The position numbers and the translations under genes were made by a program. Below are positions 2,588 through 19,659 of a stretch of 26,487 bases of DNA, one piece after another; the stretch's first letter is position 1, and every line of letters starts with the position of its first letter. This stretch comes from an uncultured bacterium (GTDB lineage Bacteria > Abyssobacteria > SURF-5). The notes below the pieces were generated by a model, which searched no databases, was not told the DNA's origin, and worked only from the letters and a program-made list of their open reading frames with translations. The stretch spans positions 1 through 26,487 of the forward strand of contig CAZSKP010000053.1 of the NCBI GenBank assembly GCA_964607485.1. Direction: 5' to 3'.

Positions 2588-3124
2588 TCAGCCGCCCTCG
2601 AACATCCAGCCTTCGTTTTTCATAAACCAATTGCTGCTGTCATTCAGATATTCGAGCGTCTCCTGTAGCAATTCGTAATGCTGCTTCTCCATCAGGGTCA
2701 GGTGCTTGAAAGCGTTCCTCTCTATCTCCCCCTTGGACTTCTGTTGGGCCTCGTTGTATAGGTCGTAGCCCCGCTTCTCGAAGTCCAGCGCTATCTTCAT
2801 CGCTTCGGTATCGCTCGGGTCGGCCTCAGTTCGCTTCCGGGCTTCCTCCCCCGCCTGCTGGAATATCGTCTTGAATCGCTGCCGCATCGGCTGACCGTGC
2901 ATCTCCTCAAGCACCCGCTCCACCTCTTTGACGCCGGACTTGCTGTATATCTTTCGAAGCAGCTCCGCATGACGCTGCTCGTCCTCGGCAAGTCCCTCGA
3001 ACGTTTTCTTGCCGAAGGGGTCTTTCGATTTCTCGGCGAACTCGCTGTACATTCGCAAGCCGTCCTCTTCGAGCTGCAATGCGAATTTCACTATGTCTTC
3101 CATCTTTTCGGGAAGTTCCGTCAT
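2588..3124 (-). CDS. Ferritin-like diiron protein (rubrerythrin family, no C-terminal rubredoxin domain)
   Basis: Duplicated helix pairs ALQLEEDGLRMY...LAEDEQRH and ALDFEKRGYDLY...LTLMEKQH (two E...ExxH sets). AGGAGG RBS; ATGA overlap with the upstream gene. Confidence 0.85.
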   Translation of the reverse strand: MTELPEKMEDIVKFALQLEEDGLRMYSEFAEKSKDPFGKKTFEGLAEDEQRHAELLRKIYSKSGVKEVERVLEEMHGQPMRQRFKTIFQQAGEEARKRTEADPSDTEAMKIALDFEKRGYDLYNEAQQKSKGEIERNAFKHLTLMEKQHYELLQETLEYLNDSSNWFMKNEGWMFEGG

Positions 3125-4563
3125 TTACTCTTCCTCCTTTTTGCGGACCGAGCGGCGGGCTTTCTCGATTTCCCTCCGGCGGTCTTCTTCGGCCCGTCGC
3201 TTGTGAGGGGGTTTGTAATCCTTTCAAACTCGGACTTCGACAATATGCCTTTCTTTGTCGCAAGGTTCTTTATCGATTCGCCCGAACTGCGCGACTCGTG
3301 AACGATCTCGGCGGCCTTCAGGTATCCGACATAGGGGCTCAGTGCGGTCGCAAGCCCGACGCTGCGCTCGAAATACTGCCGGCAGCGAGCCTTGTCTGCG
3401 GTGATGCCGTCGACGCACCTTTCGACAAAATCGGGAATGTAATTGGCGAAAAGTCGAATCGACCGAAGCAGGTTCAACGCCATCACGGGCATCATCACGT
3501 TCAGGTCGAATTGGCCGGCCTGCACCGCTAGCGCCACCGCGAGGTCATTCCCCACGACCTGAAAGGCCACCATGTCGAGACATTCCGCCATCACCGGATT
3601 CACCTTGCCCGGCATGATGGACGAGCCGGGCTGAACAGCGGGCAGTGTGATCTCGGAGATGCCGGTCGTGGGGCCCGAGTTCAGAAGCCGCAGGTCGTTC
3701 GCAATCCTGATGAGCTCGAGCGCGAGGTCGCGCAGCGCGCCCGACAGAGAGGCAATCCGATAGTTGCACTGAACCGCGAAGATGAGGTTCGGCGCAGGCC
3801 TCAGTTTGAGGTCGGAAATGCGGCTGAGATGCCTCGCCACGGTTCGCGCAAACCTCGGGTGCGCGTTCAATCCCGTCCCGACCGCCGTTCCTCCGAGCGC
3901 GATCTCATGCAAGAGCGCCGCTCGACGGGAGATTTCCCTGCGGCCGACCTCGACGGCCTCGGCCTGCGCGTCGAATTCCTGTCCGAGCGTTATCGGCACG
4001 GCGTCTTCCAGGTGGGTTCGGCCCGATTTCACGACCCGCCTGAACTGTCGCCCCTTTGAACGGAGAGCGGAAACAAGTTTCTTGAGCGCCTCGTCCAGCC
4101 GCGGAAGCTCAAGAAGCGCCGCCACGTTCATGGCCGTCGGGAACGTGTCGTTCGTGGACTGCGCCATGTTCACATGGTCGTTCGCGCTGAGGTAGTCGTA
4201 ATCGCCACGCTTCTTGCCCAGCCTCTCGAGCGCGAGGTTGGCGAGCACCTCGTTCACGTTCATGTTGTAAGAAGTGCCCGCGCCCGCCTGGTACGCGTCC
4301 AGCCTGAACTGGTCGTCGTGCTTGCCCTGCAAGACCTCGTCGCACGCCCAAACGATGGCCCTCGCCCGACGCCGGTCGAGCACGCGCAGCTCCTGATTAG
4401 CCAGGGCGGCGGCCTTCTTAATCATGACGTACGCGTGGAGAAGCGACGCGGGATGCGTCTCGCCGCTGGCCCGAAAATTTTCCAGCGCTCGCAGCGTCTG
4501 GATTCCGTAGTAAGCGTCGGCGGGCACTTTGCGCTCGCCGAGCGAATCCCGTTCGATTCGCAC
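3121..4563 (-). CDS. aspA: Aspartate ammonia-lyase (aspartase/class II fumarase superfamily)
   Basis: RIERDSLGE, YYGIQTLRA, QAGAGTSYNMNVNEV, QSTND, KSGRTHLEDAVP, GSSIMPGKVNPV. GAGTS and DAVP are more AspA-like than FumC-like. Start reassigned to GTG at 4563 (AGGAGAG RBS) instead of ATG at 4605. Confidence 0.85.
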   Translation of the reverse strand: MRIERDSLGERKVPADAYYGIQTLRALENFRASGETHPASLLHAYVMIKKAAALANQELRVLDRRRARAIVWACDEVLQGKHDDQFRLDAYQAGAGTSYNMNVNEVLANLALERLGKKRGDYDYLSANDHVNMAQSTNDTFPTAMNVAALLELPRLDEALKKLVSALRSKGRQFRRVVKSGRTHLEDAVPITLGQEFDAQAEAVEVGRREISRRAALLHEIALGGTAVGTGLNAHPRFARTVARHLSRISDLKLRPAPNLIFAVQCNYRIASLSGALRDLALELIRIANDLRLLNSGPTTGISEITLPAVQPGSSIMPGKVNPVMAECLDMVAFQVVGNDLAVALAVQAGQFDLNVMMPVMALNLLRSIRLFANYIPDFVERCVDGITADKARCRQYFERSVGLATALSPYVGYLKAAEIVHESRSSGESIKNLATKKGILSKSEFERITNPLTSDGPKKTAGGKSRKPAARSAKRRKSK

Positions 4564-4573
4564 GCCTGCTCTC

Positions 4574-4759
4574 CTACTGCGTCTGGATTTGCCAGTCGAT
4601 GTCATAGGTCTGCCTACAGTTGGGACACATCAACACGATCTTATGTGTCTTTTGTTTTCTCGTCTTCTTGAACGTCACGTGGAAGCCGCCCGCATAATCG
4701 CACGATTCACAGGCGTAGAAATGTTTTTCCATTTCCTTCTTAATAGGTCGTTTGGGCAT
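4574..4759 (-). CDS. Small (61 aa) zinc-ribbon/rubredoxin-like metal-binding protein
   Basis: MPKRPIKKEMEKHFYACESCDYAGGFHV...VLMCPNCRQTYDIDW has two CxxC pairs. AAGGAG RBS before ATG at 4759. Fills the gap between operon genes. Confidence 0.75.
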   Translation of the reverse strand: MPKRPIKKEMEKHFYACESCDYAGGFHVTFKKTRKQKTHKIVLMCPNCRQTYDIDWQIQTQ

Positions 4760-4879
4760 ATGAAACTCCTTCCCTGCAAGAGAATTCGCAGCGTCCGCGG
4801 AATCGTGCTCCTTCAATCGAGTTCGCAGAATTCATCCTCTTCTACTTTACACATTGACGCTGCGGTTTGCCACCCCGAG

Positions 4880-5044
4880 CTAATCAAGCATCTCCTCAAA
4901 GACGTCCTTCCCAGCGCCACAGAGAGGACAGACCCAATCGTCCGGCAGGTCCGCAAACGCCGTCCCCGGCGGGATGCCGCCCTCGGCGTCCCCCTCGGCC
5001 GGATCATAAATGTAGCCGCACACGCTGCACGAATATCTGTTCAC
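4880..5044 (-). CDS. rub: Rubredoxin (54 aa; not in the ORF track)
   Basis: Manual translation from GTG at 5044: [54 protein letters not shown]. Canonical CxxCGY...PDDWVCPxCG signature; GAGGAGG RBS. Confidence 0.97.
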
Positions 5045-5095: not shown

Positions 5096-6088
5096 CTAAA
5101 ATCTTTCCGTGGCTCTCGCCCGCCGCATGGACAGATTGTAGCTGACAATGAACAGGGCCGCAAACGCCGCAGTGACCACCGGATATATCCAGCCAAGCCC
5201 CAATTCGTCCGGACTGAGCGAGGGCACGACCAGCATGTATCTTTCAAGAAACAGCCCGACGACCACGCACAGGGCCGCCAGCAGAGGCGCTGCTCCTATC
5301 AGCTTGGCGCGCCGCGTCATCAGGATAAAAAACGGAAGCACGAACGCAAGCGCGAGCACCAGCAGTGTCACCCAACTCCACGGCGAATAGTAAAAGCGCA
5401 GGTAAACGAATTGCGTCTCCTCCGGCATGTCGCCATACCAAATGACGATATATTGGCTCCACAGCAGAGAGACCCAGAACAGGGCCATGCCGAATATCAA
5501 CTGGCAGAGCTTACGCCGGTCTTCCACAGGCACGCCCGCCCTCAGAAAGCCGGCAAGACACAGTCCCCCCATGCCCAGGTAGAAAGAGCTGACGGCGTAG
5601 TACGCTCCAAGCAGAGTGCTGTACCAGTGCGGCTGCAGGGACATGATCAGGTCGAACGCGAGGTAGCTGTACACCGCCATGAAGGCTATTACCAACACCA
5701 CAGCCCACGGCGAAGCGGCCGACCGCCCTGCTTCGCGCGCCTCCCTCGCCCCCGACAGGAATTTCCAGCTCAGCCCCGCCAAAACAGTCAGCCCCAGCAG
5801 GCCCCGCACCGCGAGGAACGGCACGTTCAGGTATGCGGCCTTCTCGGGAACCGGCTCGGCTATCCATGGGAAGACGTGGCTGCGCCCGAGCAGCAACACC
5901 GCGAACAGCAAAATGCAAACTGGGAGAAACCCGGCGAAATGTTCAGCCAATTGTACATAGCGCCGTCCCCAACGAGCGCCGGTGATGTTGAGCGTCGCGG
6001 CGAATATCACACCGCCCTGGGCCAACCCGGCCCAGAACAGGAAATTCACCAAGTACGCCTGCCAGAACGTGTCGCCAAAGTCGCTCAT
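5096..6088 (-). CDS. actF: ACIII subunit F-like (ActF/QrcD-like, NrfD-fold membrane protein)
   Basis: WQAYLVNFLFWAGLAQGG, ARWGR, FDLIMSLQPHWYSTLLG, WSQYIVIWYGDMPEET, LERYMLVVPS. Multiple TM helices; ATG at 6088 overlaps the actD stop (ATGA). Confidence 0.85.
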   Translation of the reverse strand: MSDFGDTFWQAYLVNFLFWAGLAQGGVIFAATLNITGARWGRRYVQLAEHFAGFLPVCILLFAVLLLGRSHVFPWIAEPVPEKAAYLNVPFLAVRGLLGLTVLAGLSWKFLSGAREAREAGRSAASPWAVVLVIAFMAVYSYLAFDLIMSLQPHWYSTLLGAYYAVSSFYLGMGGLCLAGFLRAGVPVEDRRKLCQLIFGMALFWVSLLWSQYIVIWYGDMPEETQFVYLRFYYSPWSWVTLLVLALAFVLPFFILMTRRAKLIGAAPLLAALCVVVGLFLERYMLVVPSLSPDELGLGWIYPVVTAAFAALFIVSYNLSMRRARATERF

Positions 6089-6627
6089 AACCAGACAGAC
6101 TCCTCGTCCGAAGCGACCGAGCCCGCCGGACGCACCTCTCGCGCGCCCGTCTCGCGCAGCGCGGCCTCGACCGAAGCGTATTCCGACGGCTCGTGCCAGA
6201 CCACCAGAGCGAAATCGCTCCGCGAGCAGCCGGCGTGATAACATTCCTTCGCAACCGGCGGCAGCTTGGCATTCAGCATCAGCCCCAGCATCGTCGCCAG
6301 TCCTCCGAATAGAATCGTCATCTCAAACGCGATCACCACAAACGCCGGAAGCGAAACGACCGGCTTGCCGCCCACCAGCAGTGGCCAGTCCAGGACGGTC
6401 ATCACCTGTAATCCCATCCCGAAGAATGCTCCCGCGATGCAGCCGACCAGCGCGAACCAGCGCACCTGGCTGGGGCGTTCCGGGAGCAGCTCATCCAACT
6501 CCGGCAGAGGAATCGGGCTGAGCACTTCCAGCCTGTCGTTGCCCCGACGCTGCATCGCCCTGATGGCGTCGGCCAACAGCCCGGGATCGACAAAGACAGC
6601 CAACAACGGCTTGCGTTTGTCAGGCAT
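6085..6627 (-). CDS. actD: ACIII subunit D (DUF3341 family)
   Basis: LAVFVDP...LEVLSPIP, two TM helices flanking DWPLLVGGKPVVSLPAFVVIAFEMTILFG. Position directly after actC. Confidence 0.9.
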   Translation of the reverse strand: MPDKRKPLLAVFVDPGLLADAIRAMQRRGNDRLEVLSPIPLPELDELLPERPSQVRWFALVGCIAGAFFGMGLQVMTVLDWPLLVGGKPVVSLPAFVVIAFEMTILFGGLATMLGLMLNAKLPPVAKECYHAGCSRSDFALVVWHEPSEYASVEAALRETGAREVRPAGSVASDEESVWL

Positions 6628-7954
6628 GGCTGGCTCCTTCCGAGTTCGATCGGGTCGCCGCTTTTACCTCGCCCATCGCCACCACCGGCAATATCTTGGA
6701 GAACATCGCGAACAGGAAGAAGAACATGCCAAAACTGCCCAGCATGATGCCCCATTCATAAATGGTGGGCGTATATGTGCCCCACGCGTACGGGTCGTAA
6801 TCGCTCGACAGGCTGGTCACGATGATGACGAACCGCTCCACCCACATCCCTATGAGAACGCAGACCGCCACAAAATAGACATAGCCCATCTTCAAGCGCA
6901 GCCGCGCGCTCAGAAGAGTCAGCGGAAGAATCGAGTTGCACGCAACCATCAGCCAGAACAGCGGGCCGTACACCCCGAACGCCCGGTTGTAGAAGCTGTG
7001 CTGCTCAAACGTGTTCCCCGTGTACCACGCGATGAAAAACTCCGCAAAGTATGAATACGTGATGATGAGACTCATGAAAACCAGCATCTTGGACAGCATG
7101 CCGAAGTGTCTGTGCGTGATCAGCCCTTGAAGGCCGAAGAATCTGCGCATCGGCAAGAGTATCACGACTATCATCGCGCACCCCGAGAAGATGGCGCCCG
7201 CGACGAAGTACGGCGCAAAGATGGTGCTGTGCCACCCCGGAATGATGGAAACCGCGAAGTCCCAACTGACCACGCTGTGCACCGATATGACAAGCGGCGT
7301 GGCGAGGGCAGCGAGCAGCAGGTACGCCATCTCCTGATGACGCCACTGCCGATGGCTCCCGCGCCAGCCCAGCGAAAGCGCCGCATAAGCCTTCCTGGCA
7401 AGCCCCGTCGAGCGGTCGCGGACCGTGGCGAGGTCGGGGATCAATCCGACATAAAAGAACATCCCGCTCACGAGCATGTATGTCGTTACCGCAAACACGT
7501 CCCACAGCAGTGGGCTGCGGAAGTTGGGCCAGAGTCCTCGATAGCTCGGATATGGAATCAGGTAGTAGGCGATCCAGACCCGACCCAAATGAATCAGCGG
7601 AAACAGCCCGGCGGTCATGATGGCGATCACGGTCATGGCTTCGGCGATTCGATTGATGCTCGTCCGCCACCTGGCCTGAAACAGATACAGAATCGCCGAA
7701 ATGAGCGTGCCCGAATGCGCGAGCCCGACCCAGAACACGAAGTTGGTGATGTACACTCCCCAGTGTACCGGATTGTTGATGCCGGCCACCCCGATGGCGA
7801 CGCGGAGCTGGTGCAGATAGCATAGGCCTCCTATTCCGAGGCACACCAGCGCCGCCAGCACGAATGCAATGTACAACTTGCCTGGACGAAACATTCCGCT
7901 CAGCACGGTGTGTTCTACCTGCTCGAAATCGGCTGGGACGGGTTTTCCGTTCAT
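6620..7954 (-). CDS. actC: ACIII subunit C (NrfD/PsrC-family quinol-binding membrane subunit)
   Basis: WGVYITNFVFWVGLAHSGTLISAIL, WRTSINRIAEAMT, IHLGRVW, NFRSPLLWDVFAV, HSVVSWDFA, GWHSTIFAPYFVAGAIFSG, GMWVERFVII. Start at ATG 7954 (GTG at 7969 is an alternative). Confidence 0.93.
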   Translation of the reverse strand: MNGKPVPADFEQVEHTVLSGMFRPGKLYIAFVLAALVCLGIGGLCYLHQLRVAIGVAGINNPVHWGVYITNFVFWVGLAHSGTLISAILYLFQARWRTSINRIAEAMTVIAIMTAGLFPLIHLGRVWIAYYLIPYPSYRGLWPNFRSPLLWDVFAVTTYMLVSGMFFYVGLIPDLATVRDRSTGLARKAYAALSLGWRGSHRQWRHQEMAYLLLAALATPLVISVHSVVSWDFAVSIIPGWHSTIFAPYFVAGAIFSGCAMIVVILLPMRRFFGLQGLITHRHFGMLSKMLVFMSLIITYSYFAEFFIAWYTGNTFEQHSFYNRAFGVYGPLFWLMVACNSILPLTLLSARLRLKMGYVYFVAVCVLIGMWVERFVIIVTSLSSDYDPYAWGTYTPTIYEWGIMLGSFGMFFFLFAMFSKILPVVAMGEVKAATRSNSEGASHA

Positions 7955-7961
7955 GGCGTTC

Positions 7962-10892
7962 TCACACACTCTCCACAGCGACGGCGTCGGGATGATAGAT
8001 TCGCTTGAGATAGACTATAGACGGCTGGGTGTTCAGCTCGGCGAAGATGGTGTACCCTCGCGGGTCGTCGAGCAGCTTCGACACGCGGCTCGTCGCGTCG
8101 TTCAAATCGCCGAAATGGATCGCTCCGGTGGGACAGCTCTGGGCGCACGCCGGAATAATCTCGCCGTCCCGCAACGCGCGCTCTTCATCCTTGGCGATCT
8201 CCTTGTGCTCTCGGATACGCTGCACGCAGAAGGTGCATTTCTCCATAATGCCGCGGGTTCGAATCGATATGTCAGGATTGAACTGCCTGTCGAGGGGCGG
8301 CTCGGCTTTGTATGTGTACCAGTTGAATCGGCGCACCTTGTAGGGGCAGTTGTTCGCGCAATATCTGGTTCCGACGCACCGGTTGTACACCTGCACGTTG
8401 AGGCCCTCGCTGCTGTGCACCGCGGCATACACCGGGCAGACGGTCTCGCACGGGGCGTGCTCGCATTGCTGGCACAGCATCGGAAGAAACACGATGCGCC
8501 CCCTGTCGATGAACCTCTCGATGCGCAGCCACGACATCTCCCGGCCAATCAGACACTGCTGCTTGCCCACGACCGGCACGTTGTTCTCCGCCTGACAGGC
8601 GACCGCGCACGCGCCGCAGCCGATACAGGCCGAGAGGTCGATCGCCATCGTCCAATCATGCACGGGATGCTCGTGTTTCGGGTAAAGGTCAACATGACGT
8701 TCAACGGCGCGCTCATCGCGTTCCGCCGTCGGCTTGCCAAGTTCGTTGAGGGCCACAGCCCGGGCTATGCGGCGGTGGTCTTGAAGGTCGTAGCCCTGCA
8801 TGCGGGCCAGCCTGGTCCGTCCCACGACCTCCTTGAAGGTCACCGTCGTACCCATCCACGACAGCGCGCCCGACTTTTCGTCCACGGCGCCTTTCAGTCG
8901 GTGCAGGGGATGACTGTCGGCGGCATAGTGAAACGGAGCGTACGCATCGCTCGGCGCGCCCAGCGGCACGGCGACGACCGCATCGTTTGTGCCGGCCTGC
9001 ACGTACACGGGCGTCTCAATCGTGCTTTCGCCGCATGCAAGCCGGACCACGTCGCCGGAGCGGCACTTCCATTTCCTGGCTGTCGCGGGTGAGATGCAGG
9101 CGGGCGTGTCCCACACGATCGTGGTGACGGGGTCGGGAAGCTCGTACAGCCATGGCCTGCCCGTCTGGCGTCCGTCCCCGTAACGCACGGTCGTGATGGG
9201 CAGGAGGGCCTGCTGACCGGCGTCCGAAATTATCGGCTGCACTCCTTTGAGCGCCTCGGCGGCTTTCGCGTTGAGACCGACTTTCTGCGGCACAGGCTCC
9301 AGCCAGCATCCACCTGTGGCGAGAACCCCGCGCCAGAAATCCTCGAAGGAGTCCGAGATAGAAGCGCTCTGTCGAATCTTCTCCCATCTGTCGTGAAGAA
9401 ATTCTTCGTAATCCGAGGCCGACTCGCCCGACGTACCCGACAGGACGAACAGGATGTCGAGCAACACCTGTCCCGAGCCGCGCGAGTCGTACAACGGCTC
9501 GACGACAGGCTGTTGCACGCAGTTCAGCCCGCTGCGGGGTTCCAGCCAATCCCAACGCTCGAGCCAATGGTGAACGGGCAACGCGACGTCGTACAACTCA
9601 GACGCATCGTCGCGCACCGAGGCAAGCTGCACCTTGAGCGGCACACGTTTCAGCGCCGCCCTCCAGCGGTCGGGCTGTGGGAACGTAAACTCCGGGTTAG
9701 TCTCGTGCACGATCAGCGCCCCGACTCGTCCCGCCTCCATGTCCTCGACAAGTTGGAGCAATTCCGTGTATGTTCCCGTCGGAGCGTTCTCGACGCGGTC
9801 AAACGTCAGCGTTTTGCCGTAGCCCCCCGCGACAACGTTTATGAGGTTTACCGCCACCTGAATCGCCGTCGCGTTTTCGGTCCGAGAGGTCGGCCCGCCG
9901 GCGACGGCGAGGCTAGGCGTCTGCGTCCGCAACCTATCGGCAACCACCTTTATCGCCTCGGGTGGGATACCGCTCGCCTCGGCCGCCTGCTCGACGCTGA
10001 ACGGCTCCAGTGCGAGGCGCCACGCCTGCAATTGCTCGGGTGGCAGTGCCCCGTCGGTCAGCATCAGCGACGCTATCGCCATCGCGACCAGTGTTTCGGC
10101 TCCGGGCGGACATGAGTATCTGTCGTCGGCATTGGCGCCGGTGAGCGACAGGTGCGACTCGAATTGGACGAGCCTGCTCATGGAATCGGGCCGCCGGGAG
10201 GCGGCGAAGCCGTGTGCGTTGCTGACCGGTGAGAGCCATGTCTCGAACATGTCCGCGCCGAACGAGACAATGGTACGGGACTGGTCGATTGCATACGTCG
10301 GCACGGCGTCGATTCCGAAACACAGCCTGTTGGCCTCGGCCATGGGCGCGTAATCGAGCGGCTCGTGCACGACCACGCTCAGGCGCGGCAGCCGGGCCTT
10401 GTGCCCATCCAGCACGGCGCGCAGACCGCCGGTGACATGACTGGTGACGACGGCGATTTTCTCCGAAGACGCGGGCGCCGCCGTCCGCAGCCGCTCGATT
10501 TGCTGAATCGCACTCGACCAGTCGGTCGGCTCGAGCCGGCCGTCGCTGTTTCGTCGCAGAGGTGAGCGTATCCTGGCGGGGCTGTACAAAGCCTGGAGCG
10601 CCGATTGGCCGCGCGTACACAGTCCGCCGTGATTGATCGGATGCAGCTCGTTGCCCTCGATTTTGACCGCGTTGCCTTCGCGCACGCGCACTTTCACGCC
10701 GCAGCCTGCGGGACATTCGCCGCACGTCGAATACAGCCAATATGACACGCCGGGGATAATCTCGTCGTCGGGTATCAGCTTCTTGAGTATCACACCGGTG
10801 CGCGACCGCCCGAGCGGCAGCAGCGCTCCGGCGCCCACAAGCCCCGTGTGTTTGAGAAAACTTCTCCGGCTCAGCTTATCCATTTCGGTCAT
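7962..10892 (-). CDS. actB: ACIII subunit B: Tat-exported molybdopterin-oxidoreductase-like domain fused to a multi-Fe-S domain
   Basis: Tat motif SRRSFLK; CGECPAGC...C; DMSO-reductase-family fold motifs (KIEGNELHP, SFGADMFETW). C-terminal CIGCGACAVAC, CQQCEHAPCETVCP, CVGTRYCANNCP and CTFC...CAQSCP. Confidence 0.93.
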   Translation of the reverse strand: MTEMDKLSRRSFLKHTGLVGAGALLPLGRSRTGVILKKLIPDDEIIPGVSYWLYSTCGECPAGCGVKVRVREGNAVKIEGNELHPINHGGLCTRGQSALQALYSPARIRSPLRRNSDGRLEPTDWSSAIQQIERLRTAAPASSEKIAVVTSHVTGGLRAVLDGHKARLPRLSVVVHEPLDYAPMAEANRLCFGIDAVPTYAIDQSRTIVSFGADMFETWLSPVSNAHGFAASRRPDSMSRLVQFESHLSLTGANADDRYSCPPGAETLVAMAIASLMLTDGALPPEQLQAWRLALEPFSVEQAAEASGIPPEAIKVVADRLRTQTPSLAVAGGPTSRTENATAIQVAVNLINVVAGGYGKTLTFDRVENAPTGTYTELLQLVEDMEAGRVGALIVHETNPEFTFPQPDRWRAALKRVPLKVQLASVRDDASELYDVALPVHHWLERWDWLEPRSGLNCVQQPVVEPLYDSRGSGQVLLDILFVLSGTSGESASDYEEFLHDRWEKIRQSASISDSFEDFWRGVLATGGCWLEPVPQKVGLNAKAAEALKGVQPIISDAGQQALLPITTVRYGDGRQTGRPWLYELPDPVTTIVWDTPACISPATARKWKCRSGDVVRLACGESTIETPVYVQAGTNDAVVAVPLGAPSDAYAPFHYAADSHPLHRLKGAVDEKSGALSWMGTTVTFKEVVGRTRLARMQGYDLQDHRRIARAVALNELGKPTAERDERAVERHVDLYPKHEHPVHDWTMAIDLSACIGCGACAVACQAENNVPVVGKQQCLIGREMSWLRIERFIDRGRIVFLPMLCQQCEHAPCETVCPVYAAVHSSEGLNVQVYNRCVGTRYCANNCPYKVRRFNWYTYKAEPPLDRQFNPDISIRTRGIMEKCTFCVQRIREHKEIAKDEERALRDGEIIPACAQSCPTGAIHFGDLNDATSRVSKLLDDPRGYTIFAELNTQPSIVYLKRIYHPDAVAVESV

Positions 10893-10905
10893 CGTCCGTG
10901 AGGCT

Positions 10906-11415
10906 CTACTTGTGGCACGTGACGCACTCTCGCGACGCGCCTCTGCTGTTGTGACATTCGAGACACCATCCCATGCCGAGGTCGGTGACGCGCTGCACGG
11001 TGGTCATCAGTTCGACCGGCCCGTGACACTCCTGACACTTTACGCCGCTCAGCACGTGCCGCTTGTGCGTGAAATACACGTGCGGCTTGACTCGATACAC
11101 CCGCACCCATTTTATGGGCTCACCTGCCTTGTACATCGCCGCAAGCTTGACCACCTCGGGCTTATCCGTGGCGACGCCCGCGTGGCATGCCATGCAGAAA
11201 TCCGCATGGGGAAGGCCCGCATGAATCGACTTCTCAGCGTACTGATGGCAGTCCGTGCATTCCATGCCTATCCTTGTCACGTGGATGAAATGCGGAAACT
11301 CGATGGGCTGCGCCGGGCGCATGGAGGGCCTCTGCCTGAGACCGAGGGCGACAACCAGCGCCGCCACAGCGGCGAACCACGCCGCCACCATCCCGAAGAT
11401 CGCCACGGTCTTCAC
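10906..11415 (-). CDS. actA: ACIII subunit A: membrane-anchored pentaheme cytochrome c
   Basis: One N-terminal TM helix, QPIEFPHFIH, and five CxxCH motifs (CTDCH, CMACH, CQECH, CLECH, CVTCH), plus VYFTHKRH and MGWCLECH. Confidence 0.93.
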   Translation of the reverse strand: MKTVAIFGMVAAWFAAVAALVVALGLRQRPSMRPAQPIEFPHFIHVTRIGMECTDCHQYAEKSIHAGLPHADFCMACHAGVATDKPEVVKLAAMYKAGEPIKWVRVYRVKPHVYFTHKRHVLSGVKCQECHGPVELMTTVQRVTDLGMGWCLECHNSRGASRECVTCHK

Positions 11416-11418
11416 AGT

Positions 11419-12677
11419 CTATTGGCTCCCGCTCAGAATATATCCGACGATTTTTTCGGCCTCTTCCCTGTCTATCGGAGGCTTCGGCATGTTGGGAAGC
11501 TCGGGGTTCACCTTCGTGGGATTGAGGACGAACTCCGTCATCTGCTCCGGCTTGCCGCCGTATTTCTGCGTCATATACTCAACGGGCGGGCCGACCAGCG
11601 TGCTCCCGCGCGTATGACAGCCCGTGCAATAGCGCTTGAACAATTCCTCTCCGGTCAGCGTCACACTGCCTTCAGGCGTGTGCGTTTGGAGGAACGACGC
11701 AAGCGACGCCCGGTATTCCTGCGTCCGCCGCTCGGCTACCTTCTGGGGTTCGCGCAACAGGTTCTCCCGCACGATGTGTCTGATGGTGCTCATCAAGAGA
11801 GCAATGACGCCGAGCAGCACGACCGCCGTCACGATGGACGCTCCCGACGTCTTTTGCAGCGCGCGTATCAAGACCATGCACACCAGGGCTATCAGCGCCA
11901 GAGCCGCGCCGATGTGAATGAGCAGGACGGTTGAATATGACCCCGCGGGCAGCGAGACGAAGTTCAGCGTCCCGAATATCCCCTGCAGGAGCGTCGCCGT
12001 CAGGGCCCATTTCAATCCCAGCCGCTGCGCCCGCATGTAGAATGGATCGTCGGATTTCCTTCCGCGAAATATATCGCGGCGAAGAACCCGATCATCGCAA
12101 ACACCGCCACCATGAAGTGCATGTACCTAAAGAGCACGTTTGGCAGGAGCAGCGCCCGGATGAACCCATGCGTTGTATCCCATCGGAACGGGAGCAGCAT
12201 CAGATTGATGTTGGTCAGGAAAATCAGCGGCACGACCGTAAAGATCGCGCAGCCCAGCGCTCCGAATGAGAGGTGCACGAACGGCCGGTCAGCGAGGGCG
12301 TCCCACGTGTATTTGTACGCATACAGCGCGAGGAACGCAACTATCACCAGCCAGATAATCGACAGAAACGCGGAGAAGGTCATGATGTTGGCGGTGTACC
12401 AGTAACGCGTATATGCCAGGCCTATCAAGAGCAGCGGCGCCACTCCCAACACCACCGCGAGGCTCTTGTTGACCGTCACCGTGGAGAGCGTTTCCCTCGC
12501 AAGACGCTCATAGAAAGGGTCTTCCCTGCCGAGCAGCTTGAAAATCACACTCCAATAAGCCCCGCCGACCATCATGCCCACAAATAGGATGTGCACGATG
12601 AACGTGACCACCAGAAGCAGTTTGAGCGCCCCCTCGGGCCCCGGCAAAGGAAGCGGTATGTCTATCGGAATGCTCAT
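11419..12677 (-). CDS. CydA-like membrane protein with C-terminal class I cytochrome c; one gene interrupted by a 1-nt frameshift near 12066 (track ORFs 12012..12677 and 11419..12036)
   Basis: 5' part: TFIVHILFVGMMVGG, SLAVVLGVAPLL, RYMHFMVAV. 3' part: TM helices, then GEELFKRYCTGCH...VGP...NMP. Frames join as AAIYF|RGRKSDDPFYMRAQRLGLKW if one base is restored. Confidence 0.75.
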
Positions 12678-13981
12678 TGTTGTGCCGCTACTCCTTCGGC
12701 CAGAAACTTCGCCAGCGCCTCTTTCTCATCCTGCGTGCCCGCAAACGGCGGCATATACGGGTGGGAAAACTGATAAGTGTCGAGAAAGGTCAGAGCCGCT
12801 TCCTCGCTGGACAGGATTGGCCGTTTATTGAATATTCCGTTGACGCCCCGGTATGTGTGACACGCCGAGCATTCGAGGCGGAACAGCATGTGGCCAAGGG
12901 CGCCTTCGCCGCCCTTCGGGTCGAGTCCCCGCCAGGCCCACGTGGAGTATCGCTCCGCTCCGGTGTCTGAGATGAACGGCAGCTCCGCCTCCCGGAAGCC
13001 ATTGCTGTACAAATAGTTATTTATCACGTACGGCTTACGCGAGAATTCGCGGACCCGCTCAAACTGGGCGACGGCGAGAATCAGCGTAAGAATCGGCACT
13101 ACCGACAGGATGCCGTACGTCTTCCGCCTGAAGAACAACACCGCCCCGACGGCCAGCATCACCCCGACAACCGCGAAAAAGAAAACCTTGCTCCACTCGG
13201 CGTATTGTGTCAACTGGAGCGTGACGAGCGCGACCGATATGAATTTCTCCGCGCTTGCCGGCAGGGCCCGGTAGTATGCGTAGGTCGCGAAAAGGTAGAT
13301 GGGACTCGCGATGAGGAGGTACAAGCCCGTAAACCTCAGGAACCGCTCGCGCACGTCGCGCATATTGCGCATAAACGCAAAAATGAACAAACTGAATGCG
13401 CAGGCCAGAAGCCCCGCCAGTGCCGCTCTGCTGAAAAATTGCGGGAAATATGTGGGGTTGAAGAATGCGTCCCAGAACGACCGGCTGCTTATCCACTTGC
13501 CGGGCGTGAGCTGGAATCCCAGAATGCCCACTATGATCACGAGCGTCTGGAGCGACGCCGCGAGATAAACGATGCCGAGCTTCAGATGTTTGCCGGGCGA
13601 CATCCGATGCCACGACAGGTAGTAAACAGAGACGAGCCCTATCTCGGTCATAAAAATGACCCACTCAACAAACCAGGCCCAGAAGAACACCCGCAGGAGC
13701 GACCCGATGCCCACGGGAGAGAACATGTTGGTGGTGAACCAGATTCCCACACCGGTCAGCGCTCCGATGGAGGTGGTCAGGACAAAGAACCAGCGCGCCA
13801 GCCGATATGCCACTTCGTTCAGACGTTCGTCTGCCTCACGGATGGATTTGTATTCGAGCAGGACAAGAAAGAGGGATCCGCCGACGGCGCAGCCGTGGCT
13901 GATGAGCACGTGGATAACGCCGACAATCGCAATGAGCAACCGGCTGCCTATCAGAGGCACTTCAGCAATTGGGAAGTCCAA
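12674..13981 (-). CDS. Cytochrome bd subunit I (CydA)-like protein fused to a C-terminal cytochrome c
   Basis: IHVLISH; GALTGVGIWF (cf. CydA GVATG); WFVEWVIFMTE (two Glu of the CydA channel); FQLTPGKW...AFFNP; ERVREFSRKPYVI (cf. E.GRQPW); CSACH...YMPPF. TTG start with GAGGAG RBS. Confidence 0.85.
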   Translation of the reverse strand: MDFPIAEVPLIGSRLLIAIVGVIHVLISHGCAVGGSLFLVLLEYKSIREADERLNEVAYRLARWFFVLTTSIGALTGVGIWFTTNMFSPVGIGSLLRVFFWAWFVEWVIFMTEIGLVSVYYLSWHRMSPGKHLKLGIVYLAASLQTLVIIVGILGFQLTPGKWISSRSFWDAFFNPTYFPQFFSRAALAGLLACAFSLFIFAFMRNMRDVRERFLRFTGLYLLIASPIYLFATYAYYRALPASAEKFISVALVTLQLTQYAEWSKVFFFAVVGVMLAVGAVLFFRRKTYGILSVVPILTLILAVAQFERVREFSRKPYVINNYLYSNGFREAELPFISDTGAERYSTWAWRGLDPKGGEGALGHMLFRLECSACHTYRGVNGIFNKRPILSSEEAALTFLDTYQFSHPYMPPFAGTQDEKEALAKFLAEGVAAQQ

Positions 13982-14118: not shown

Positions 14119-14147
14119 ATTATAATCGCCAGCACAAGGCGATGCAA
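14119..14147 (-). promoter_or_regulatory. Sigma70-type promoter of the cydA-like/act operon
   Basis: Minus strand TTGCAT (14147-14142), 17-nt spacer, TATAAT (14124-14119). Confidence 0.7.
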
Positions 14148-14256: not shown

Positions 14257-15003
14257 GTGATAGAAGTCCGTAATCTAACCTTCAGATACAACGCCCAGTT
14301 CATCCTGAACGACGTCTCATTCAGTCTGAATGAGAACGAGACCACCGTTGTCATCGGACGAAGCGGCGTCGGCAAGAGCACGCTGTTGCGCTGCATCCTC
14401 GGCCTTGTGAGGCCCGAATCGGGCAGCATACACGTCGAAGGAACCGACATCACGAAGATAAGCGAGAAGGAGTTGAACTTGATCAGACGCGACTTCGGCA
14501 TGCTCTTTCAGGGGGCCGCGCTCTTCAATTCCATGACGGTCGGGGATAACATCGCCTTCCCCATACGCCAACACCGCAACTACGATGAGGAAAAGGTTCG
14601 TTCGATAGTCCAGGAAAAGCTCAAGCTGGTCGACCTCGAGGGCTGCGAGAACATGATGCCGGCGGAGCTGAGCGGAGGCATGAAGAAGCGTGCCGGGCTT
14701 GCCAGAGCCCTGGCCCTCGATCCCAGGTGCATCTTCTTTGATGAACCCATCGCCGGCCTGGACCCCATCATCGCGAGCGGCATCGACCAGCTCATATTGA
14801 AGCTGAAGAAAGTCTCCGGCATGACCATGATGATAGTGACCCATGAGTTATTGCACGGATTCAGAGTGGCCGACAAGGTTATCATGCTCCACGAAGGCAG
14901 GATAATAGCGAAGGGCGCACCGTCAGAGATAGTACTGAGTGAAAACGGGCACGTGCAGCAGTTCTTGCGGGGCCTCCCCGACGTCGATTCGGTATCAGAA
15001 TGA
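14257..15003 (+). CDS. mlaF: MlaF/Mkl-type ABC transporter ATP-binding protein
   Basis: Walker A GRSGVGKS, GMLFQGAALFNSMTVGDNIAFP, signature LSGGMKKRAGLARA, FFDEPIAGLDP, VTHE. Confidence 0.92.
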   Translation: MIEVRNLTFRYNAQFILNDVSFSLNENETTVVIGRSGVGKSTLLRCILGLVRPESGSIHVEGTDITKISEKELNLIRRDFGMLFQGAALFNSMTVGDNIAFPIRQHRNYDEEKVRSIVQEKLKLVDLEGCENMMPAELSGGMKKRAGLARALALDPRCIFFDEPIAGLDPIIASGIDQLILKLKKVSGMTMMIVTHELLHGFRVADKVIMLHEGRIIAKGAPSEIVLSENGHVQQFLRGLPDVDSVSE

Positions 15004-16517
15004 CTATTCCCGCTTCGCCGCTCTCTCTGCCGAGAAGGTTACGCGAGGGGCGCCTCTGTCGCGGAGGCGGGCGTGGTCTGTCACGGTTGCTCGCGCTTTC
15101 TGTTGTGGCCTTTCTGCTATCGGCTTTCGGCTGCGCCACGCCGACCGGGGACAGGTCCAAGGGTATCGACCCCTGGCCGGCCTATTCTCCCTCGGGCGAA
15201 GAGCGAGCGACTCGACGGTCGGGCCTCTGGCCGTTCGTGGCCGTCGAGGAGACGCCCTCGTGGCGCCAGTTTTCTCTCAGGCCGTTTTATGTCGAGCGCG
15301 AGACGCCCGACGGCTCGGAAAAGAAGGTGCAGTTCCTATGGCCCATATACCTGTACAGGCGCTCCGACGAGGATATTACCATACGCGTGCTCCCCTTATA
15401 TACATACCGGAAGGACGTTTACGCATACAAGGACGAACGTGAAATTGATACCGAGTACATGCTGTTCCCGTTCCTGTTCGGAGGCAAATCGACCGAATAC
15501 GGAGGACATTTCGCAGTGTTTCCCGTGGCGGGAAGCCTCAAGAATTTTCTGGGTCGGGACGAAATCCGATTCTTCCTGTTCCCTCTCTACATGGAATATT
15601 CCAAGGACGAGCTTCACCAGCGAAACTATGTCTGGCCGGTGTTGTCGTTCTCGGAGGGGGGCGATTACGACGGCTTCCGCCTGTGGCCCCTGTTCGGGCA
15701 CTTTGAAAAACGCGGCGAGTATCGCAAAGAATTCTTCCTTTGGCCCATCGTTCATCACCAGACATTCGACCTCGACAAGGAAGAGAGCGGCGAACGCCTG
15801 CTCGTGTTTCCATTTTATGCCCGGGAGGACAGCTCCAGGAGACGGTATCGTTCGATTATCTGGCCGTTCTTTTCTCACGAGCAGAACTATGCGAAGAACT
15901 TTGACGAGCGCGCTATGCCCTGGCCCTTTATCGTAAGGGCGAGGGGCGAAAATATCTATAAGACGCGGTTCTGGCCGCTCTACGGCTATACGCGGACGGA
16001 GGGAAGCGAGAAGAGGTTTGTGCTGTGGCCCTTCTACTATCGCAACACCATCACTCTGGACGACGACTTGACGCGGTACGAGACGCTGCTCCTGCCCTTC
16101 CTGTCGTCGAAAACCGAAGTCTCGGAGGAACAGGGCGTTGTGAAACACAGGTTCAGGTTCTGGCCGCTCTGGCGATTCCGCCGGTTCGAGGACGGCTCGA
16201 CGTATTTGAGGATGCTCTCGCTCTTGTGGTTCGACGACGAGCAGGGATTCGAGCGGCAATACTCCCCGCTGTGGACGATATATGAACGCGGTACCAGCCC
16301 CGACGGCTCAGGCCACACGTATGCGCTCTGGCGGCTGTTTCGCCAGCGGCATACCGCCACGGGCTCCGAGGCTCACATCCCGCTCCTGTTCTCTCACATC
16401 GAGGACATGGAGCAGGACTCGGAAGAGACGAGAATACTCGGAGGACTGCTTGGAACCAGCCGCGAGGGAGACGAACGCAGGCTTAGGCTGCTGTTTTTCT
16501 TGGATATCCCGTACTGA
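15000..16517 (+). CDS. Putative lipoprotein of unknown function built from aromatic (W/F/L)P repeats
   Basis: ATGA overlap with mlaF. Hydrophobic stretch ending in LSAFGC (Cys45). About 18 recurrences of hydrophobic-(W/F/L)-P-hydrophobic-aromatic, roughly every 17-25 aa. Confidence 0.8.
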   Translation: MTIPASPLSLPRRLREGRLCRGGGRGLSRLLALSVVAFLLSAFGCATPTGDRSKGIDPWPAYSPSGEERATRRSGLWPFVAVEETPSWRQFSLRPFYVERETPDGSEKKVQFLWPIYLYRRSDEDITIRVLPLYTYRKDVYAYKDEREIDTEYMLFPFLFGGKSTEYGGHFAVFPVAGSLKNFLGRDEIRFFLFPLYMEYSKDELHQRNYVWPVLSFSEGGDYDGFRLWPLFGHFEKRGEYRKEFFLWPIVHHQTFDLDKEESGERLLVFPFYAREDSSRRRYRSIIWPFFSHEQNYAKNFDERAMPWPFIVRARGENIYKTRFWPLYGYTRTEGSEKRFVLWPFYYRNTITLDDDLTRYETLLLPFLSSKTEVSEEQGVVKHRFRFWPLWRFRRFEDGSTYLRMLSLLWFDDEQGFERQYSPLWTIYERGTSPDGSGHTYALWRLFRQRHTATGSEAHIPLLFSHIEDMEQDSEETRILGGLLGTSREGDERRLRLLFFLDIPY

Positions 16518-16559
16518 AAACATTGCAGGGGCGTGGCGAGCGGGTACGGAGGATAACGC

Positions 16560-17345
16560 ATGAGGATGCTTCTGAAATTTCTGGGCGCTCGACTCATCTA
16601 CTTCTTCGAGACGACGGGCGAGGTTCTCATCCTCTTTGTGCGAACGCTCAGATGCTGCAGGAAAGCGCTTCAGAACCGCGCGAACATATTCAAGCAGATG
16701 GCGTTCATGGGAGTCGGCACGCTTCCGATAGCCCTGTTGATGGGCTTCTTTGTGGGAATGGTGCTGGCCCTGCAGACGGGCTACCAACTGCTCAGGTTCA
16801 ATCTCGAGGGCATCATCGGCGCGATAGTGGGGCTGTCGATGGCGAAGGAGCTTGCGCCGGTGCTGACCGGCTATCTGGTAGCCGGCCGTGTCGGGGCGGC
16901 CATCACGGCGGAAATAGGCACGATGGAAATCTCGGAGGAGATAGACGCGCTCCGTGTCATGGGAGTTGACCCCGTCTACTATCTCTCGATGCCCCGCCTT
17001 GTGGCCGCAGTCTTCATGGTCCCGATCATCGTGATCTATGTAAACCTCATCGGCATCATCGGAGGCGCCATCATATCATCGACGTACGTGAACATCAGTA
17101 TGAAGAGCTACTTTGACAACCTGTTCGATTCGCTCACGTTTAACGAGGTGTTTCGAGGCCTCATAAAGGCCATGTTCTTCGGCGGCATCGTCGCGATAGT
17201 CGGCTGTTACAAAGGGTTCAAGACGAGCGGAGGAGCCGAAGGCGTCGGCCGGTACACGACCCAATCGGTCGTGCTTTCATTCATCCTTATCGTTGTGTTC
17301 GATTACTTCTTGTCCAGAATCTTGTTGGTCAGCTTCATTCCGTAA
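16560..17345 (+). CDS. mlaE: MlaE-family ABC permease
   Basis: GMVLALQ, KELAPVLTGYLVAGRVGAAITAEIGTMEISEEIDALRVMGVDP, GGAEGVGRYTTQSVV. GGAGG RBS. Confidence 0.95.
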   Translation: MRMLLKFLGARLIYFFETTGEVLILFVRTLRCCRKALQNRANIFKQMAFMGVGTLPIALLMGFFVGMVLALQTGYQLLRFNLEGIIGAIVGLSMAKELAPVLTGYLVAGRVGAAITAEIGTMEISEEIDALRVMGVDPVYYLSMPRLVAAVFMVPIIVIYVNLIGIIGGAIISSTYVNISMKSYFDNLFDSLTFNEVFRGLIKAMFFGGIVAIVGCYKGFKTSGGAEGVGRYTTQSVVLSFILIVVFDYFLSRILLVSFIP

Positions 17346-17388
17346 TGAACGTGAACCACCGCGCTGTTGAAAGGGAGGTCAGGAGCTC

Positions 17389-18426
17389 ATGTCAAGAGAA
17401 ATGAAGGTCGGGATCTTCTTCGTGCTCGGTATGCTCATACTCGGGGGGCTGACGTTCTACGCCGGAGGCTTCGAGAACTGGCTGAAGCATCGGTACACAG
17501 TCCGCGCCTACTTCGACAAGGTGGACGGACTCGACGAGGAGGACGCCGTCACGCTTGCGGGCGTAGAGGTGGGCAAGGTCAAGGGAATGAAGATTTCCGA
17601 CAGCCGGGTCGAGGTTACGCTGCTCATAGACGGCGACGCCGTTATCCACGAGGACTCGGTCGGGCGCATCGAAAGCGAGAGCCTGCTCGGCGGCAAGTAC
17701 GTCGGCATAAGCGTCGGTTCGCCAAAGGCGCGCCGGCTCGGGGAGGGAGACACGCTGCGCACCGAGGAGGCGGCCGACATCACAAAGATGCTCCAGAGCG
17801 TCGCCGACGTCGCCGGAGACCTGCGCACCATGGTGAGAAGCTTCAACACGAACCAGGAAAAGCTCGTCTCGCAGATCGAGGACATCCTGGGCGAAAACCG
17901 GGAGAACATCCGCACGAGCTTTGAGACTCTCTCTCGAATAGTCACGGAGAATGAGGACGGCATCAGGGAAACCATCGCCGCACTGCGCGATGCCGGGCCT
18001 CAGCTCAAGGAGGCCATGGAAAGCGTGAACGCGATTGCGAAGAAGATAGAGAGCGGTGAGGGTACCATCGGTAAGCTGGTTCAGGACGACACACTCTACA
18101 CCGACATGAAGGAACTCTCCTCCAGCCTGCATGAGGCGTCGACTACTCTCACCCGTATAATGGGCGATAACGAGAAAGACATCCGGACAATCGTCGCCTC
18201 GCTCAGGGAGGCCACGCCCAAGCTGGAACAGAGCATGGACAGGATAGACCGGATCTCGCAAAAGATAGAGAACGGCGAGGGCACCATCGGCAAGCTTGTG
18301 CAGGACGATACCCTTTACAAAGAGGCGACCCGCATGCTCAAGGAGTCGCGGCATGCGGCGGAGGACGTGCGCGAGCAGGTGCCCATCATCACGTTCACGA
18401 GTGTCATCTTCGCCGCGTTTCGGTGA
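17389..18426 (+). CDS. mlaD: MCE/MlaD-family protein with long helical C-terminal extension
   Basis: EMKVGIFF TM anchor; FDKVDGL...VTLAGVEVGKV...SLLGGKYVGISVG (MCE domain); about 210-aa helical tail. Confidence 0.92.
   Translation: MSREMKVGIFFVLGMLILGGLTFYAGGFENWLKHRYTVRAYFDKVDGLDEEDAVTLAGVEVGKVKGMKISDSRVEVTLLIDGDAVIHEDSVGRIESESLLGGKYVGISVGSPKARRLGEGDTLRTEEAADITKMLQSVADVAGDLRTMVRSFNTNQEKLVSQIEDILGENRENIRTSFETLSRIVTENEDGIRETIAALRDAGPQLKEAMESVNAIAKKIESGEGTIGKLVQDDTLYTDMKELSSSLHEASTTLTRIMGDNEKDIRTIVASLREATPKLEQSMDRIDRISQKIENGEGTIGKLVQDDTLYKEATRMLKESRHAAEDVREQVPIITFTSVIFAAFR
17947..18327 (+). repeat. Internal duplication (219 nt, 73-aa period) in the MCE protein helical region
   Basis: ENEDGIRETIAALRDAGPQL...KIESGEGTIGKLVQDDTLY versus DNEKDIRTIVASLREATPKL...KIENGEGTIGKLVQDDTLY. 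DNA similarity in the core, differing mostly at synonymous sites. Confidence 0.85.
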
Positions 18427-19555: not shown

Positions 19556-19659
19556 TCGACTCGTCCCTCATATTCCGGAGTGCCGGACACACCACCCATG
19601 AGGCGCCGCCTGAATGGGTGACGACGCGCCATTTTCGGAGCGAGAGAAGGCCATTATCC

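Follow-up and report, generated by a model that had tools for sequence, protein, structure and literature searches.

A putative OR-C1-type pair of CydA-like genes with fused heme c domains heads an ActE-less Alternative Complex III gene cluster in an uncultured bacterium

The stretch of DNA analysed here (the window) is an entire 26,487-bp contig, CAZSKP010000053.1, from an uncultured bacterium of the Abyssobacteria SURF-5 lineage, and our subject is a gene cluster on its minus strand in which two CydA-like genes with fused cytochrome c domains precede the genes of an Alternative Complex III (ACIII). The list of open reading frames (ORFs) of the window shows that positions 5096-13981 are filled by eight consecutive minus-strand frames, in the order OR-C1a, OR-C1b (as two frames), actA, actB, actC, actD and actF (Table 1; the names OR-C1a and OR-C1b are explained below). 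From the coordinates, OR-C1a and OR-C1b share a 4-nt ATGA overlap, OR-C1b is separated from actA by 3 nt and actA from actB by 13 nt, actB/actC and actC/actD overlap by 8 nt each, and actD/actF overlap by a further 4-nt ATGA when ATG 6088 is taken as the start of actF. The gene order and the tight or overlapping spacing claimed for this DNA in an earlier sequence-only reading were therefore confirmed by the frame coordinates.

OR-C1a begins with a TTG codon preceded by GGAGGAG, and 839 homologues of its product were found at E ≤ 1e-3 among 8000 candidates scored, the closest being 91% identical; close homologues often carry a precomputed PF01654 assignment. Pfam detected only a weak cytochrome c domain on OR-C1a and NCBIfam gave no bd-family match for the CydA-like proteins of the window, and so kinship with CydA was shown through profile and fold instead. 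In a profile search, a profile of 20 OR-C1a homologues (A1) matched the Geobacillus CydA chain 5doq_A with E=4.9e-12 over residues 12-212. Four residues, H24, E106, E113 and E312, are invariant in 20/20 of the OR-C1a sequences, and in the A1 alignment H24 falls on the His of TVHI and E106 and E113 on the two Glu of FMETFAFFFEA in 5doq_A, with E312 lying opposite the Glu before GRQPW in a weak second stretch (invariant RVREF..RKPY against E.GRQPW). We take these retained residues to be the equivalents of His19, Glu99, Glu107 and Glu445 of E. coli CydA. An invariant Arg185 lies opposite the His in kvaHvl of 5doq_A, which is presumably a heme b558 ligand, and the position replaced by Arg is one that we take to be His186 of E. 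coli CydA, a quinol-site and heme b558 ligand. The AlphaFold model made from A1 (pLDDT 83.4, pTM 0.82) has eight transmembrane (TM) helices and then a helical C-terminal domain, and in this model OR-C1a has no insertion of Q-loop length, the eight TM helices directly preceding the heme c domain. All of the top 10 PDB matches of the model were cytochrome bd subunit I chains (E 4.7e-7 to 2.1e-5, TM-score 0.52-0.58), with CydB chains ranking next. The A1 profile and this fold match, together with the paralogy of the two head genes, uphold the earlier claim that these genes are CydA-like.

That paralogy comes from a second profile, A2, made from the relatives of OR-C1b; hhalign finds it homologous to A1 along 391 columns (99.6%, E=1.6e-23). 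OR-C1b retains the His aligned with H24, and the two Glu are absent at those columns. Its C-terminal fragment matched Pfam Cytochrome_CBB3 (4e-7) and Cytochrom_C (1.4e-5), carries a class I cytochrome c with a CTGCH motif, and is 73% identical to the C-terminal half of an intact 422-aa protein (P0124) from Abyssobacteria SURF_17. The sequence-only reading had described a second c-fused CydA-like gene, and this holds in so far as OR-C1b is CydA-like and has a heme c, but the gene is split into frames of 221 and 205 aa by a frameshift that is weighed below. Among the relatives of OR-C1b, some have two or more cytochrome c domains (the frame at 7307-8872 of locus L004, and proteins P0121-P0123 of 522-625 aa), and an OR-C1b of about 350 aa without any CxxCH was seen in 6/25 loci (L009, L017, L020, L023, L038 and L066).

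The families OR-C1a and OR-C1b were defined by Murali, Gennis and Hemp in 2021 (bioRxiv 10.1101/2021.01.16.426971), and the available text describes them as adjacent CydA paralogs of about 8 TM helices with a C-terminal periplasmic heme c and no quinol site, the proton-channel glutamates being present in the "a" protein and not in the "b" protein and the equivalent of His19 being always kept. By this published description the head genes of the window appear to match OR-C1a and OR-C1b. The pair shows the His of the four-helix core, Glu in "a" only, and neither a quinol site nor the b558 ligands; model helices, CxxCH counts and paralogy further give about 8 TM helices and a C-terminal CxxCH in two adjacent paralogs, of which OR-C1b is frameshifted. 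The heme c domain of OR-C1a has the motifs CSACH and Met410-Pro-Pro and its best PDB matches are CcoP, cytochrome cy and the cytochrome c subunit of bc1, and those of the OR-C1b domain are c551, c552 and c555. The notion of a bd-type active site fed by a heme c domain is supported, and the same was proposed in the available text of Murali et al., where cytochrome c is regarded as the likely donor of OR-C.

For the remainder of the cluster, ActA, ActB, ActC and ActF were compared against all PDB sequences, in which the solved ACIIIs are 6lod/6loe, 6f0k, 6btm and 8k9e. ActA has exactly 5 CxxCH motifs, as had been claimed, and one N-terminal TM helix; the five motifs are invariant in 9/9 aligned ActA sequences, Pfam assigns multiheme cytochrome families, and the best PDB matches are the ActA chains 8k9e_A (8e-33), 6f0k_A, 6lod_A and 6btm_A (to 5.5e-24). 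ActB matched the Pfam families TAT_signal, Molybdop_Fe4S4, Molybdopterin and Fer4 (Fer4_7/11), with 6lod_B (3e-127), 6f0k_B, 8k9e_B and 6btm_B (to 6.9e-109) as best PDB matches, and ActC matched NrfD (7.4e-28) and 6lod_C (2e-132), 6f0k_C, 6btm_C and 8k9e_C. ActD matched PF11821 (E=1.1e-40, 139.5 bits against a cut-off of 25.7) and ActF matched 6f0k_F (3.5e-25), 6lod_F, 6btm_F and 8k9e_F. The best matches of four subunits being ACIII chains, with Pfam identifying ActD, the assignment to ACIII is supported. In the window and its relatives ActF is about 330-340 aa long, about 80 residues shorter N-terminally than solved ActF (411-464 aa), and may have two fewer TM helices. For actF we preferred ATG 6088 to a 382-aa ORF that opens at 6244, as ActF homology begins at residue 7 of the short form and the extra N-terminus is non-membrane, Arg/Gly-rich and lies inside actD; the stop-to-stop frames of actF in relatives are about 340 aa.

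ActE is a monoheme cytochrome c whose gene usually lies between actD and actF. No ActE-type gene was found between these two genes, and none elsewhere on the contig when ORFs of at least 50 aa were searched for CxxCH; the motif occurs seven times in these ORFs, five times in ActA and once each in OR-C1a and OR-C1b. The 4-nt actD/actF overlap and this contig-wide tally together argue that there is no ActE-like cytochrome, either between actD and actF or elsewhere on the contig, and agree with the absence of actE noted in the sequence-only reading. Since ACIII variants without ActF or ActG are in print (PMC12342949, in the text available), the cluster can be classed as an ACIII variant that lacks ActE. 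When actE was deleted in F. johnsoniae, electron transfer from ACIII to aa3 was reported to be unimpaired (PMC8552683), so that an ACIII without ActE is plausible in functional terms.

Scanning one genome per species gave at least 594 stretches with OR-C1a relatives, of which the best 80 were analysed. OR-C1b follows OR-C1a in 79/80 loci (L075 being one long open frame), and actA comes directly after OR-C1b in the eight closest loci and in no others (L001-L008, 48-77% identity). Six of these extend far enough to show actB, actC, actD and actF next, ordered as in the window; L001 and L004 reach no further than actA. A quick maximum-likelihood tree built from 81 OR-C1a sequences unites the window with L001-L008 in one clade (SH-aLRT 100), which consists of two subclades about 50% identical to each other from metagenome-assembled genomes (MAGs) labelled with different phyla: one holds the window, MAGs labelled Poribacteria and Abyssobacteria SURF_17 and two further bacteria, and the other holds MAGs labelled Zhuqueibacterota, KSB1 and Gemmatimonadota and one further bacterium. 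A search for CxxCH within up to 10 kb revealed no further cytochrome c gene in L001-L008, the only other ORFs with the motif being an overlapping frame inside the OR-C1a of L001 and a Fur-family regulator in L005, so that absence of actE is a trait of the clade. The proposal that the same gene order should be sought in other genomes was thus answered by 8/8 clade loci, in all of which the linkage holds and actE is lacking.

Outside this clade, an Acidobacteriota locus (L044, 1-4543) carries actF, a 302-aa monoheme cytochrome c, OR-C1a and OR-C1b. Its actF is 5'-truncated at the contig end and matches 6f0k_F at 2e-58, and its OR-C1a lies far from the window's clade in the quick tree; this is probably a second, independent association of ACIII and OR-C1, in the canonical "ACIII first" order, opposite to that of the window. 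When the neighbouring ORFs of the 80 loci were clustered and 13 representatives searched in Pfam, no recurrent electron-donor gene was found; the largest neighbour cluster is a response-regulator family, and most recurrent clusters are without a Pfam family.

The claim that one promoter drives the cluster could not be confirmed: a consensus scan found no promoter-like sites on the minus strand of the window, and the candidate in Table 1, about 138 nt upstream of the OR-C1a start, was spotted by eye, having been missed by the scan because its -35 hexamer matches the consensus at 3/6 positions only. The consensus scan also gave no terminator-like site between actF and the rubredoxin gene which follows it, and the rubredoxin gene is possibly co-transcribed with actF.

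Downstream of actF lie genes for rubredoxin (Pfam Rubredoxin 1.2e-25), a zinc-ribbon protein, a lyase and rubrerythrin, with a sulfatase gene beyond, and the gene content of 2588-5044 is of the oxidative-stress type that is typical of anaerobes. Past actF in L002 and L003 the genes for rubredoxin, the lyase and rubrerythrin are found again, and the zinc-ribbon ORF also in L003, but none of the four follows actF in L005-L008. Divergently oriented upstream of OR-C1a, an ABC-transporter ATPase gene (14257-15003, plus strand) forms part of an Mla-like lipid transporter set (14257-18426, plus strand: ABC ATPase, MlaE permease, MlaD); between the ATPase and the permease lies a 505-aa protein without a Pfam family, in the same arrangement as in L003, and L003 (SURF_17) has both flanks in common with the window, so that an Abyssubacteria-like source is probable. 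A TldD/PmbA-type metallopeptidase pair is found at the contig end (24465-26487, plus strand), its second gene running off the contig. Rfam and tRNA scans of the window each gave 0 matches. In the other subclade, OR-C1a of the Zhuqueibacterota locus L005 is immediately preceded by a Fur-family regulator, with an Rrf2-family regulator further downstream, past actF, and actF of the KSB1 locus L008 is followed by an HMA-domain protein and by a SCO1/SenC protein (11031-12143).

Table 1. Features of the cluster and its surroundings (window coordinates unless another locus is named)
Feature	Position	Strand	Description
OR-C1a	12674..13981	-	435 aa, CydA-like, 8 predicted TM helices, C-terminal monoheme cytochrome c
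OR-C1b, N-terminal fragment	12012..12677	-	221 aa, ~5 TM; premature stop after frameshift
OR-C1b, C-terminal fragment	11419..12036	-	205-aa ORF from ATG 12036; ~3 TM and CTGCH
OR-C1b, frameshift point	12066..12069	-	From tblastn frame switch and DNA alignment
actA	10906..11415	-	169-aa pentaheme cytochrome c, N-terminal TM anchor
actB	7962..10892	-	976-aa fused molybdopterin-like and 4Fe-4S subunit, Tat signal
actC	6620..7969	-	449-aa NrfD-like quinol-interacting membrane subunit
actD	6085..6627	-	180-aa membrane subunit, Pfam PF11821
actF	5096..6088	-	330-aa second NrfD-like membrane subunit, ~8 TM
Possible promoter	14119..14147	-	TTGCAT, 17-nt spacer, TATAAT; read by eye, weak
Rubredoxin gene	4880..5044	-	51 nt past actF; GTG start preceded by GAGGAGGGG
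Zinc-ribbon ORF	4574-4759	-	61 aa
Class II fumarase/aspartase-type lyase	3121-4605	-	
Rubrerythrin	2588-3124	-	
L005 regulators	9362-9817 and 19585-20022 (locus L005)		Fur-family, Rrf2-family

Our preferred reading, held with somewhat more belief than doubt, is that the cluster encodes a self-contained menaquinol-to-oxygen branch made of two modules. In the first, ACIII (ActABCDF) would oxidise quinol at ActC, and by homology the electrons would pass through the iron-sulfur clusters of ActB to the periplasmic pentaheme ActA; the steps from quinol through ActC and ActB to ActA have been shown for homologous ACIIIs. In the second, electrons would leave ActA for the periplasmic heme c fused to OR-C1a and/or OR-C1b, and not for ActE or a heme-copper oxidase, a step which we infer from the gene linkage and the consistent lack of actE. 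The heme c would then pass them to a di-heme site in the four-helix core of OR-C1a, which by analogy with cytochrome bd would reduce O2, electrogenically and with cytoplasmic protons delivered through the conserved Glu channel, while OR-C1b would serve as a CydB-like paralogous partner without the proton-channel glutamates. This path from quinol through ACIII, fused heme c and a bd-type site to O2 is plausible, and its role is likely to be respiration or the scavenging of trace O2 in strict or facultative anaerobes which appear to lack heme-copper oxidases, here beside rubredoxin and rubrerythrin genes; the Abyssubacteria paper reports that neither SURF_5 nor SURF_17 showed a cytochrome c oxidase. 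Any supercomplex, the identity of the acceptor (O2 or NO) and co-transcription are all things that we infer. It is possible, though doubtful, that ACIII and OR-C1 form a stable, dedicated menaquinol:O2 supercomplex in which the fused heme c domains dock on ActA, and it is with the same doubt that these domains can be seen as standing in for ActE and for the cytochrome c domain of caa3. If such a supercomplex were real, it would add a third structural type to the complex III-IV supercomplexes, one containing no heme-copper enzyme, it would give the OR-C branch its first defined electron donor and a route to its biochemistry, and subsurface anaerobes such as Abyssubacteria would have in it their sole respiratory branch that reduces O2.

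Several results weigh against the two-module branch, and the first concerns the state of OR-C1b. With intact OR-C1b sequences of relatives as tblastn queries the frame changed at the same point (Table 1) in 8/8 cases, and homology in the C-terminal frame extends upstream of ATG 12036 to about 12069. In the DNA alignment the window is short of 7 nt relative to the closest loci, L001-L004 (4/4), which amounts to the codons for Trp-Tyr/Cys plus 1 nt and is too large a deficit for a single-base homopolymer slip. The module may therefore be decaying in this organism, the 7-nt deletion having inactivated OR-C1b and left the operon with no working oxidase branch, and this would fit with the finding that all OR-C1b homologues of at least 360 aa (16/16, 368-625 aa, the closest 73% identical) are single chains, that the only homologues of 112-359 aa are the window's own 198-aa product and one 242-aa protein, and that no clear Shine-Dalgarno sequence lies at the usual distance before ATG 12036. 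Decay nevertheless seems to us rather unlikely, since all the other genes of the operon are intact and an error of metagenomic assembly is possible, and since the frameshift falls in a positively charged loop after TM5 which from TM counting is putatively cytoplasmic, so that the two OR-C1b halves could keep the right topology; here the module has either been damaged or is made with a split subunit, unless the assembly is at fault. To be set beside the frameshift are the failure of Pfam to detect PF01654 at E ≤ 0.01 on either CydA-like protein of the window (no CydB-like gene accompanies them, and so they do not belong to canonical CydAB), and the fact that the 60 best PDB matches of A1, like those of A2, include no ActE chain. 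The fused heme c domains are thus not ActE-like in sequence, and the earlier suggestion that they replace ActE is conceivable as functional analogy but has no sequence homology behind it. A complex prediction of ActA residues 30-169 with the two fused heme c domains, folded without hemes, scored 0.00 and speaks neither for nor against a contact. Reduction of O2 is argued by analogy only, because no member of the OR-C and OR-N branches is described as characterised in the available texts (Murali et al., bioRxiv 10.1101/2021.01.16.426971; PMC10839748), and co-transcription is judged from gene spacing only, with nothing beyond consensus matches to speak for a promoter or terminator. As the window spans the contig from end to end, other parts of the genome may hold actE or heme-copper oxidase genes, and some Zhuqueibacterota MAGs are reported, in the text available, to carry coxABC.

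A further point of the same kind is that no ACIII gene was found near OR-C1 in 71/72 loci outside the clade (some of these contigs being short upstream), from which it follows that OR-C1 needs no ACIII in general and has other donors there. The two modules could then be co-located but loosely coupled, with ACIII filling a periplasmic pool of c-type cytochromes which also serves nitrite, NO and metal reductases, and OR-C1 drawing from that pool with no dedicated contact with ActA and no supercomplex; ACIIIs that are not clustered with oxidases have been reported to reduce periplasmic acceptors (PMC9386147, in the part available). This is unlikely in our view, because the strict adjacency, with 3-nt to 13-nt junctions, is kept across two subclades only about 50% identical, because actE, the usual exit cytochrome, has been consistently lost so that ActA is the sole heme c subunit of ACIII, and because a second, probably independent adjacency occurs in L044. 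The acceptor could also be NO, H2O2 or peroxynitrite in place of O2, which would make the system a detoxifying quinol:oxidant reductase, and the rubredoxin and rubrerythrin genes past actF in the window, L002 and L003 point in this direction, as do the Fur-family (upstream) and Rrf2-family (downstream) regulators flanking the L005 cluster and the reported part of canonical bd oxidases in O2 and NO detoxification (PMC10839748, in the text available). We think this improbable, given that all the residues which define the O2-reducing di-heme site of CydA are retained, that no nitrogen-oxide gene is present in the window, and that the rubredoxin/rubrerythrin context is confined to the closest relatives, being absent from L005-L008, and so may be plain synteny. 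Lastly, the best NCBIfam matches of ActA and ActB were QrcA, QrcB and QrcC, which could suggest a reversed complex, working as a Qrc-like cytochrome c:menaquinone reductase, with the heme c domains collecting periplasmic electrons, but the scores (83.5, 220.3 and 210.3 bits) fall below the cut-offs of 180, 440 and 400, and the nearest NCBIfam names for the ACIII subunits as a whole (QrcA, QrcB, QrcC, DsrO and DsrP) were all far under their cut-offs. ActD and ActF are not known from Qrc. Both are present here, and together with the equivalog scores this led us to reject Qrc identity; the best structural relatives being ACIII chains, and a bd-type di-heme site having no role in such a scheme, reversed operation is very improbable indeed.

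If the cluster is the two-module branch that we prefer, it bears on a superfamily whose OR-C and OR-N branches are widespread (available text of Murali et al.; PMC10839748), and for which donor and substrate have so far been inferred from sequence only. With OR-C1 wired directly to an ActE-less ACIII in one operon, ActA stands out as a concrete donor, and a compact seven-gene unit is there to be expressed and purified, making the donor and substrate of a c-type bd oxidase directly testable. It also bears on O2 respiration or scavenging in organisms reported without cytochrome c oxidases, such as Abyssubacteria, and on what ActE is for.

Within the OR-C1 family the usual locus is a stand-alone pair (71/72 loci outside the clade), whereas here the pair heads an ACIII operon. 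The main text of Murali et al., as available, mentions no ACIII linkage for OR-C, although its supplement, which describes operon contexts, may do so, and in the accessible literature, including the Abyssubacteria, KSB1 and Zhuqueibacterota papers, we found no report of OR-C1 heading an ActE-less actABCDF operon. The nearest counterparts, so far as the available texts describe them, are in Nitrospirales, where ACIII is followed by a CydAA' bd-like oxidase of OR-N5 type (PMC12342949), and in Ca. Manganitrophus noduliformans TO_3, where two bd-like "clade V" proteins occur with ACIII (10.1101/2021.11.15.468770). As in the window, ACIII is clustered there with two bd-like paralogs that lack a quinol site, and the authors propose the same logic of quinol to ACIII to a bd-like O2 reductase; the conceptual step taken here is small because such clusters are already described in Nitrospirales. 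The differences are that the OR-N5/"clade V" proteins have about 10 TM helices according to Murali et al. while the window has OR-C1, that the oxidase lies downstream of the act genes there and upstream here, and that their ACIII (actAB1B2CDE) includes ActE, splits ActB and has neither ActF nor ActG, compared with actABCDF, a fused ActB, ActF present and ActE absent in the window. The possibility that the architecture was already characterised, which the sequence-only reading had left open, is accordingly true of genomic description (Nitrospirales OR-N5, TO_3) but not of biochemistry, and the OR-C1 form is unreported in the texts available.

In the act cluster of Pelobacter carbinolicus there is a monoheme c-type "ActE" predicted to have eight TM segments, which the authors regarded as a variant ActE and as a cysteine-lined channel, only one such gene being described (PMC3543383, in the part available). 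Compared by description only, its gross architecture is like that of an OR-C1 subunit, and it may be an unrecognised OR-C-like subunit. The ACIII-caa3/aa3 "superoperons" and the F. johnsoniae supercomplex (6btm; PMC8407424, in the part available) share with the window the same ACIII core and an adjacent terminal oxidase, but there the oxidase is a heme-copper enzyme encoded downstream, actE is present and the supercomplex is shown by structure, whereas the window is known from its genes alone. With canonical CydAB(X) the window shares the subunit I fold and the residues aligned with the di-heme site and proton channel. Canonical cytochrome bd, however, has a Q-loop and the b558 His ligand where OR-C1a has no Q-loop and carries Arg185, its CydB is replaced in the window by a CydA paralog with each subunit bearing a fused heme c, and its donor is quinol where that of the window's pair is presumably a cytochrome c.

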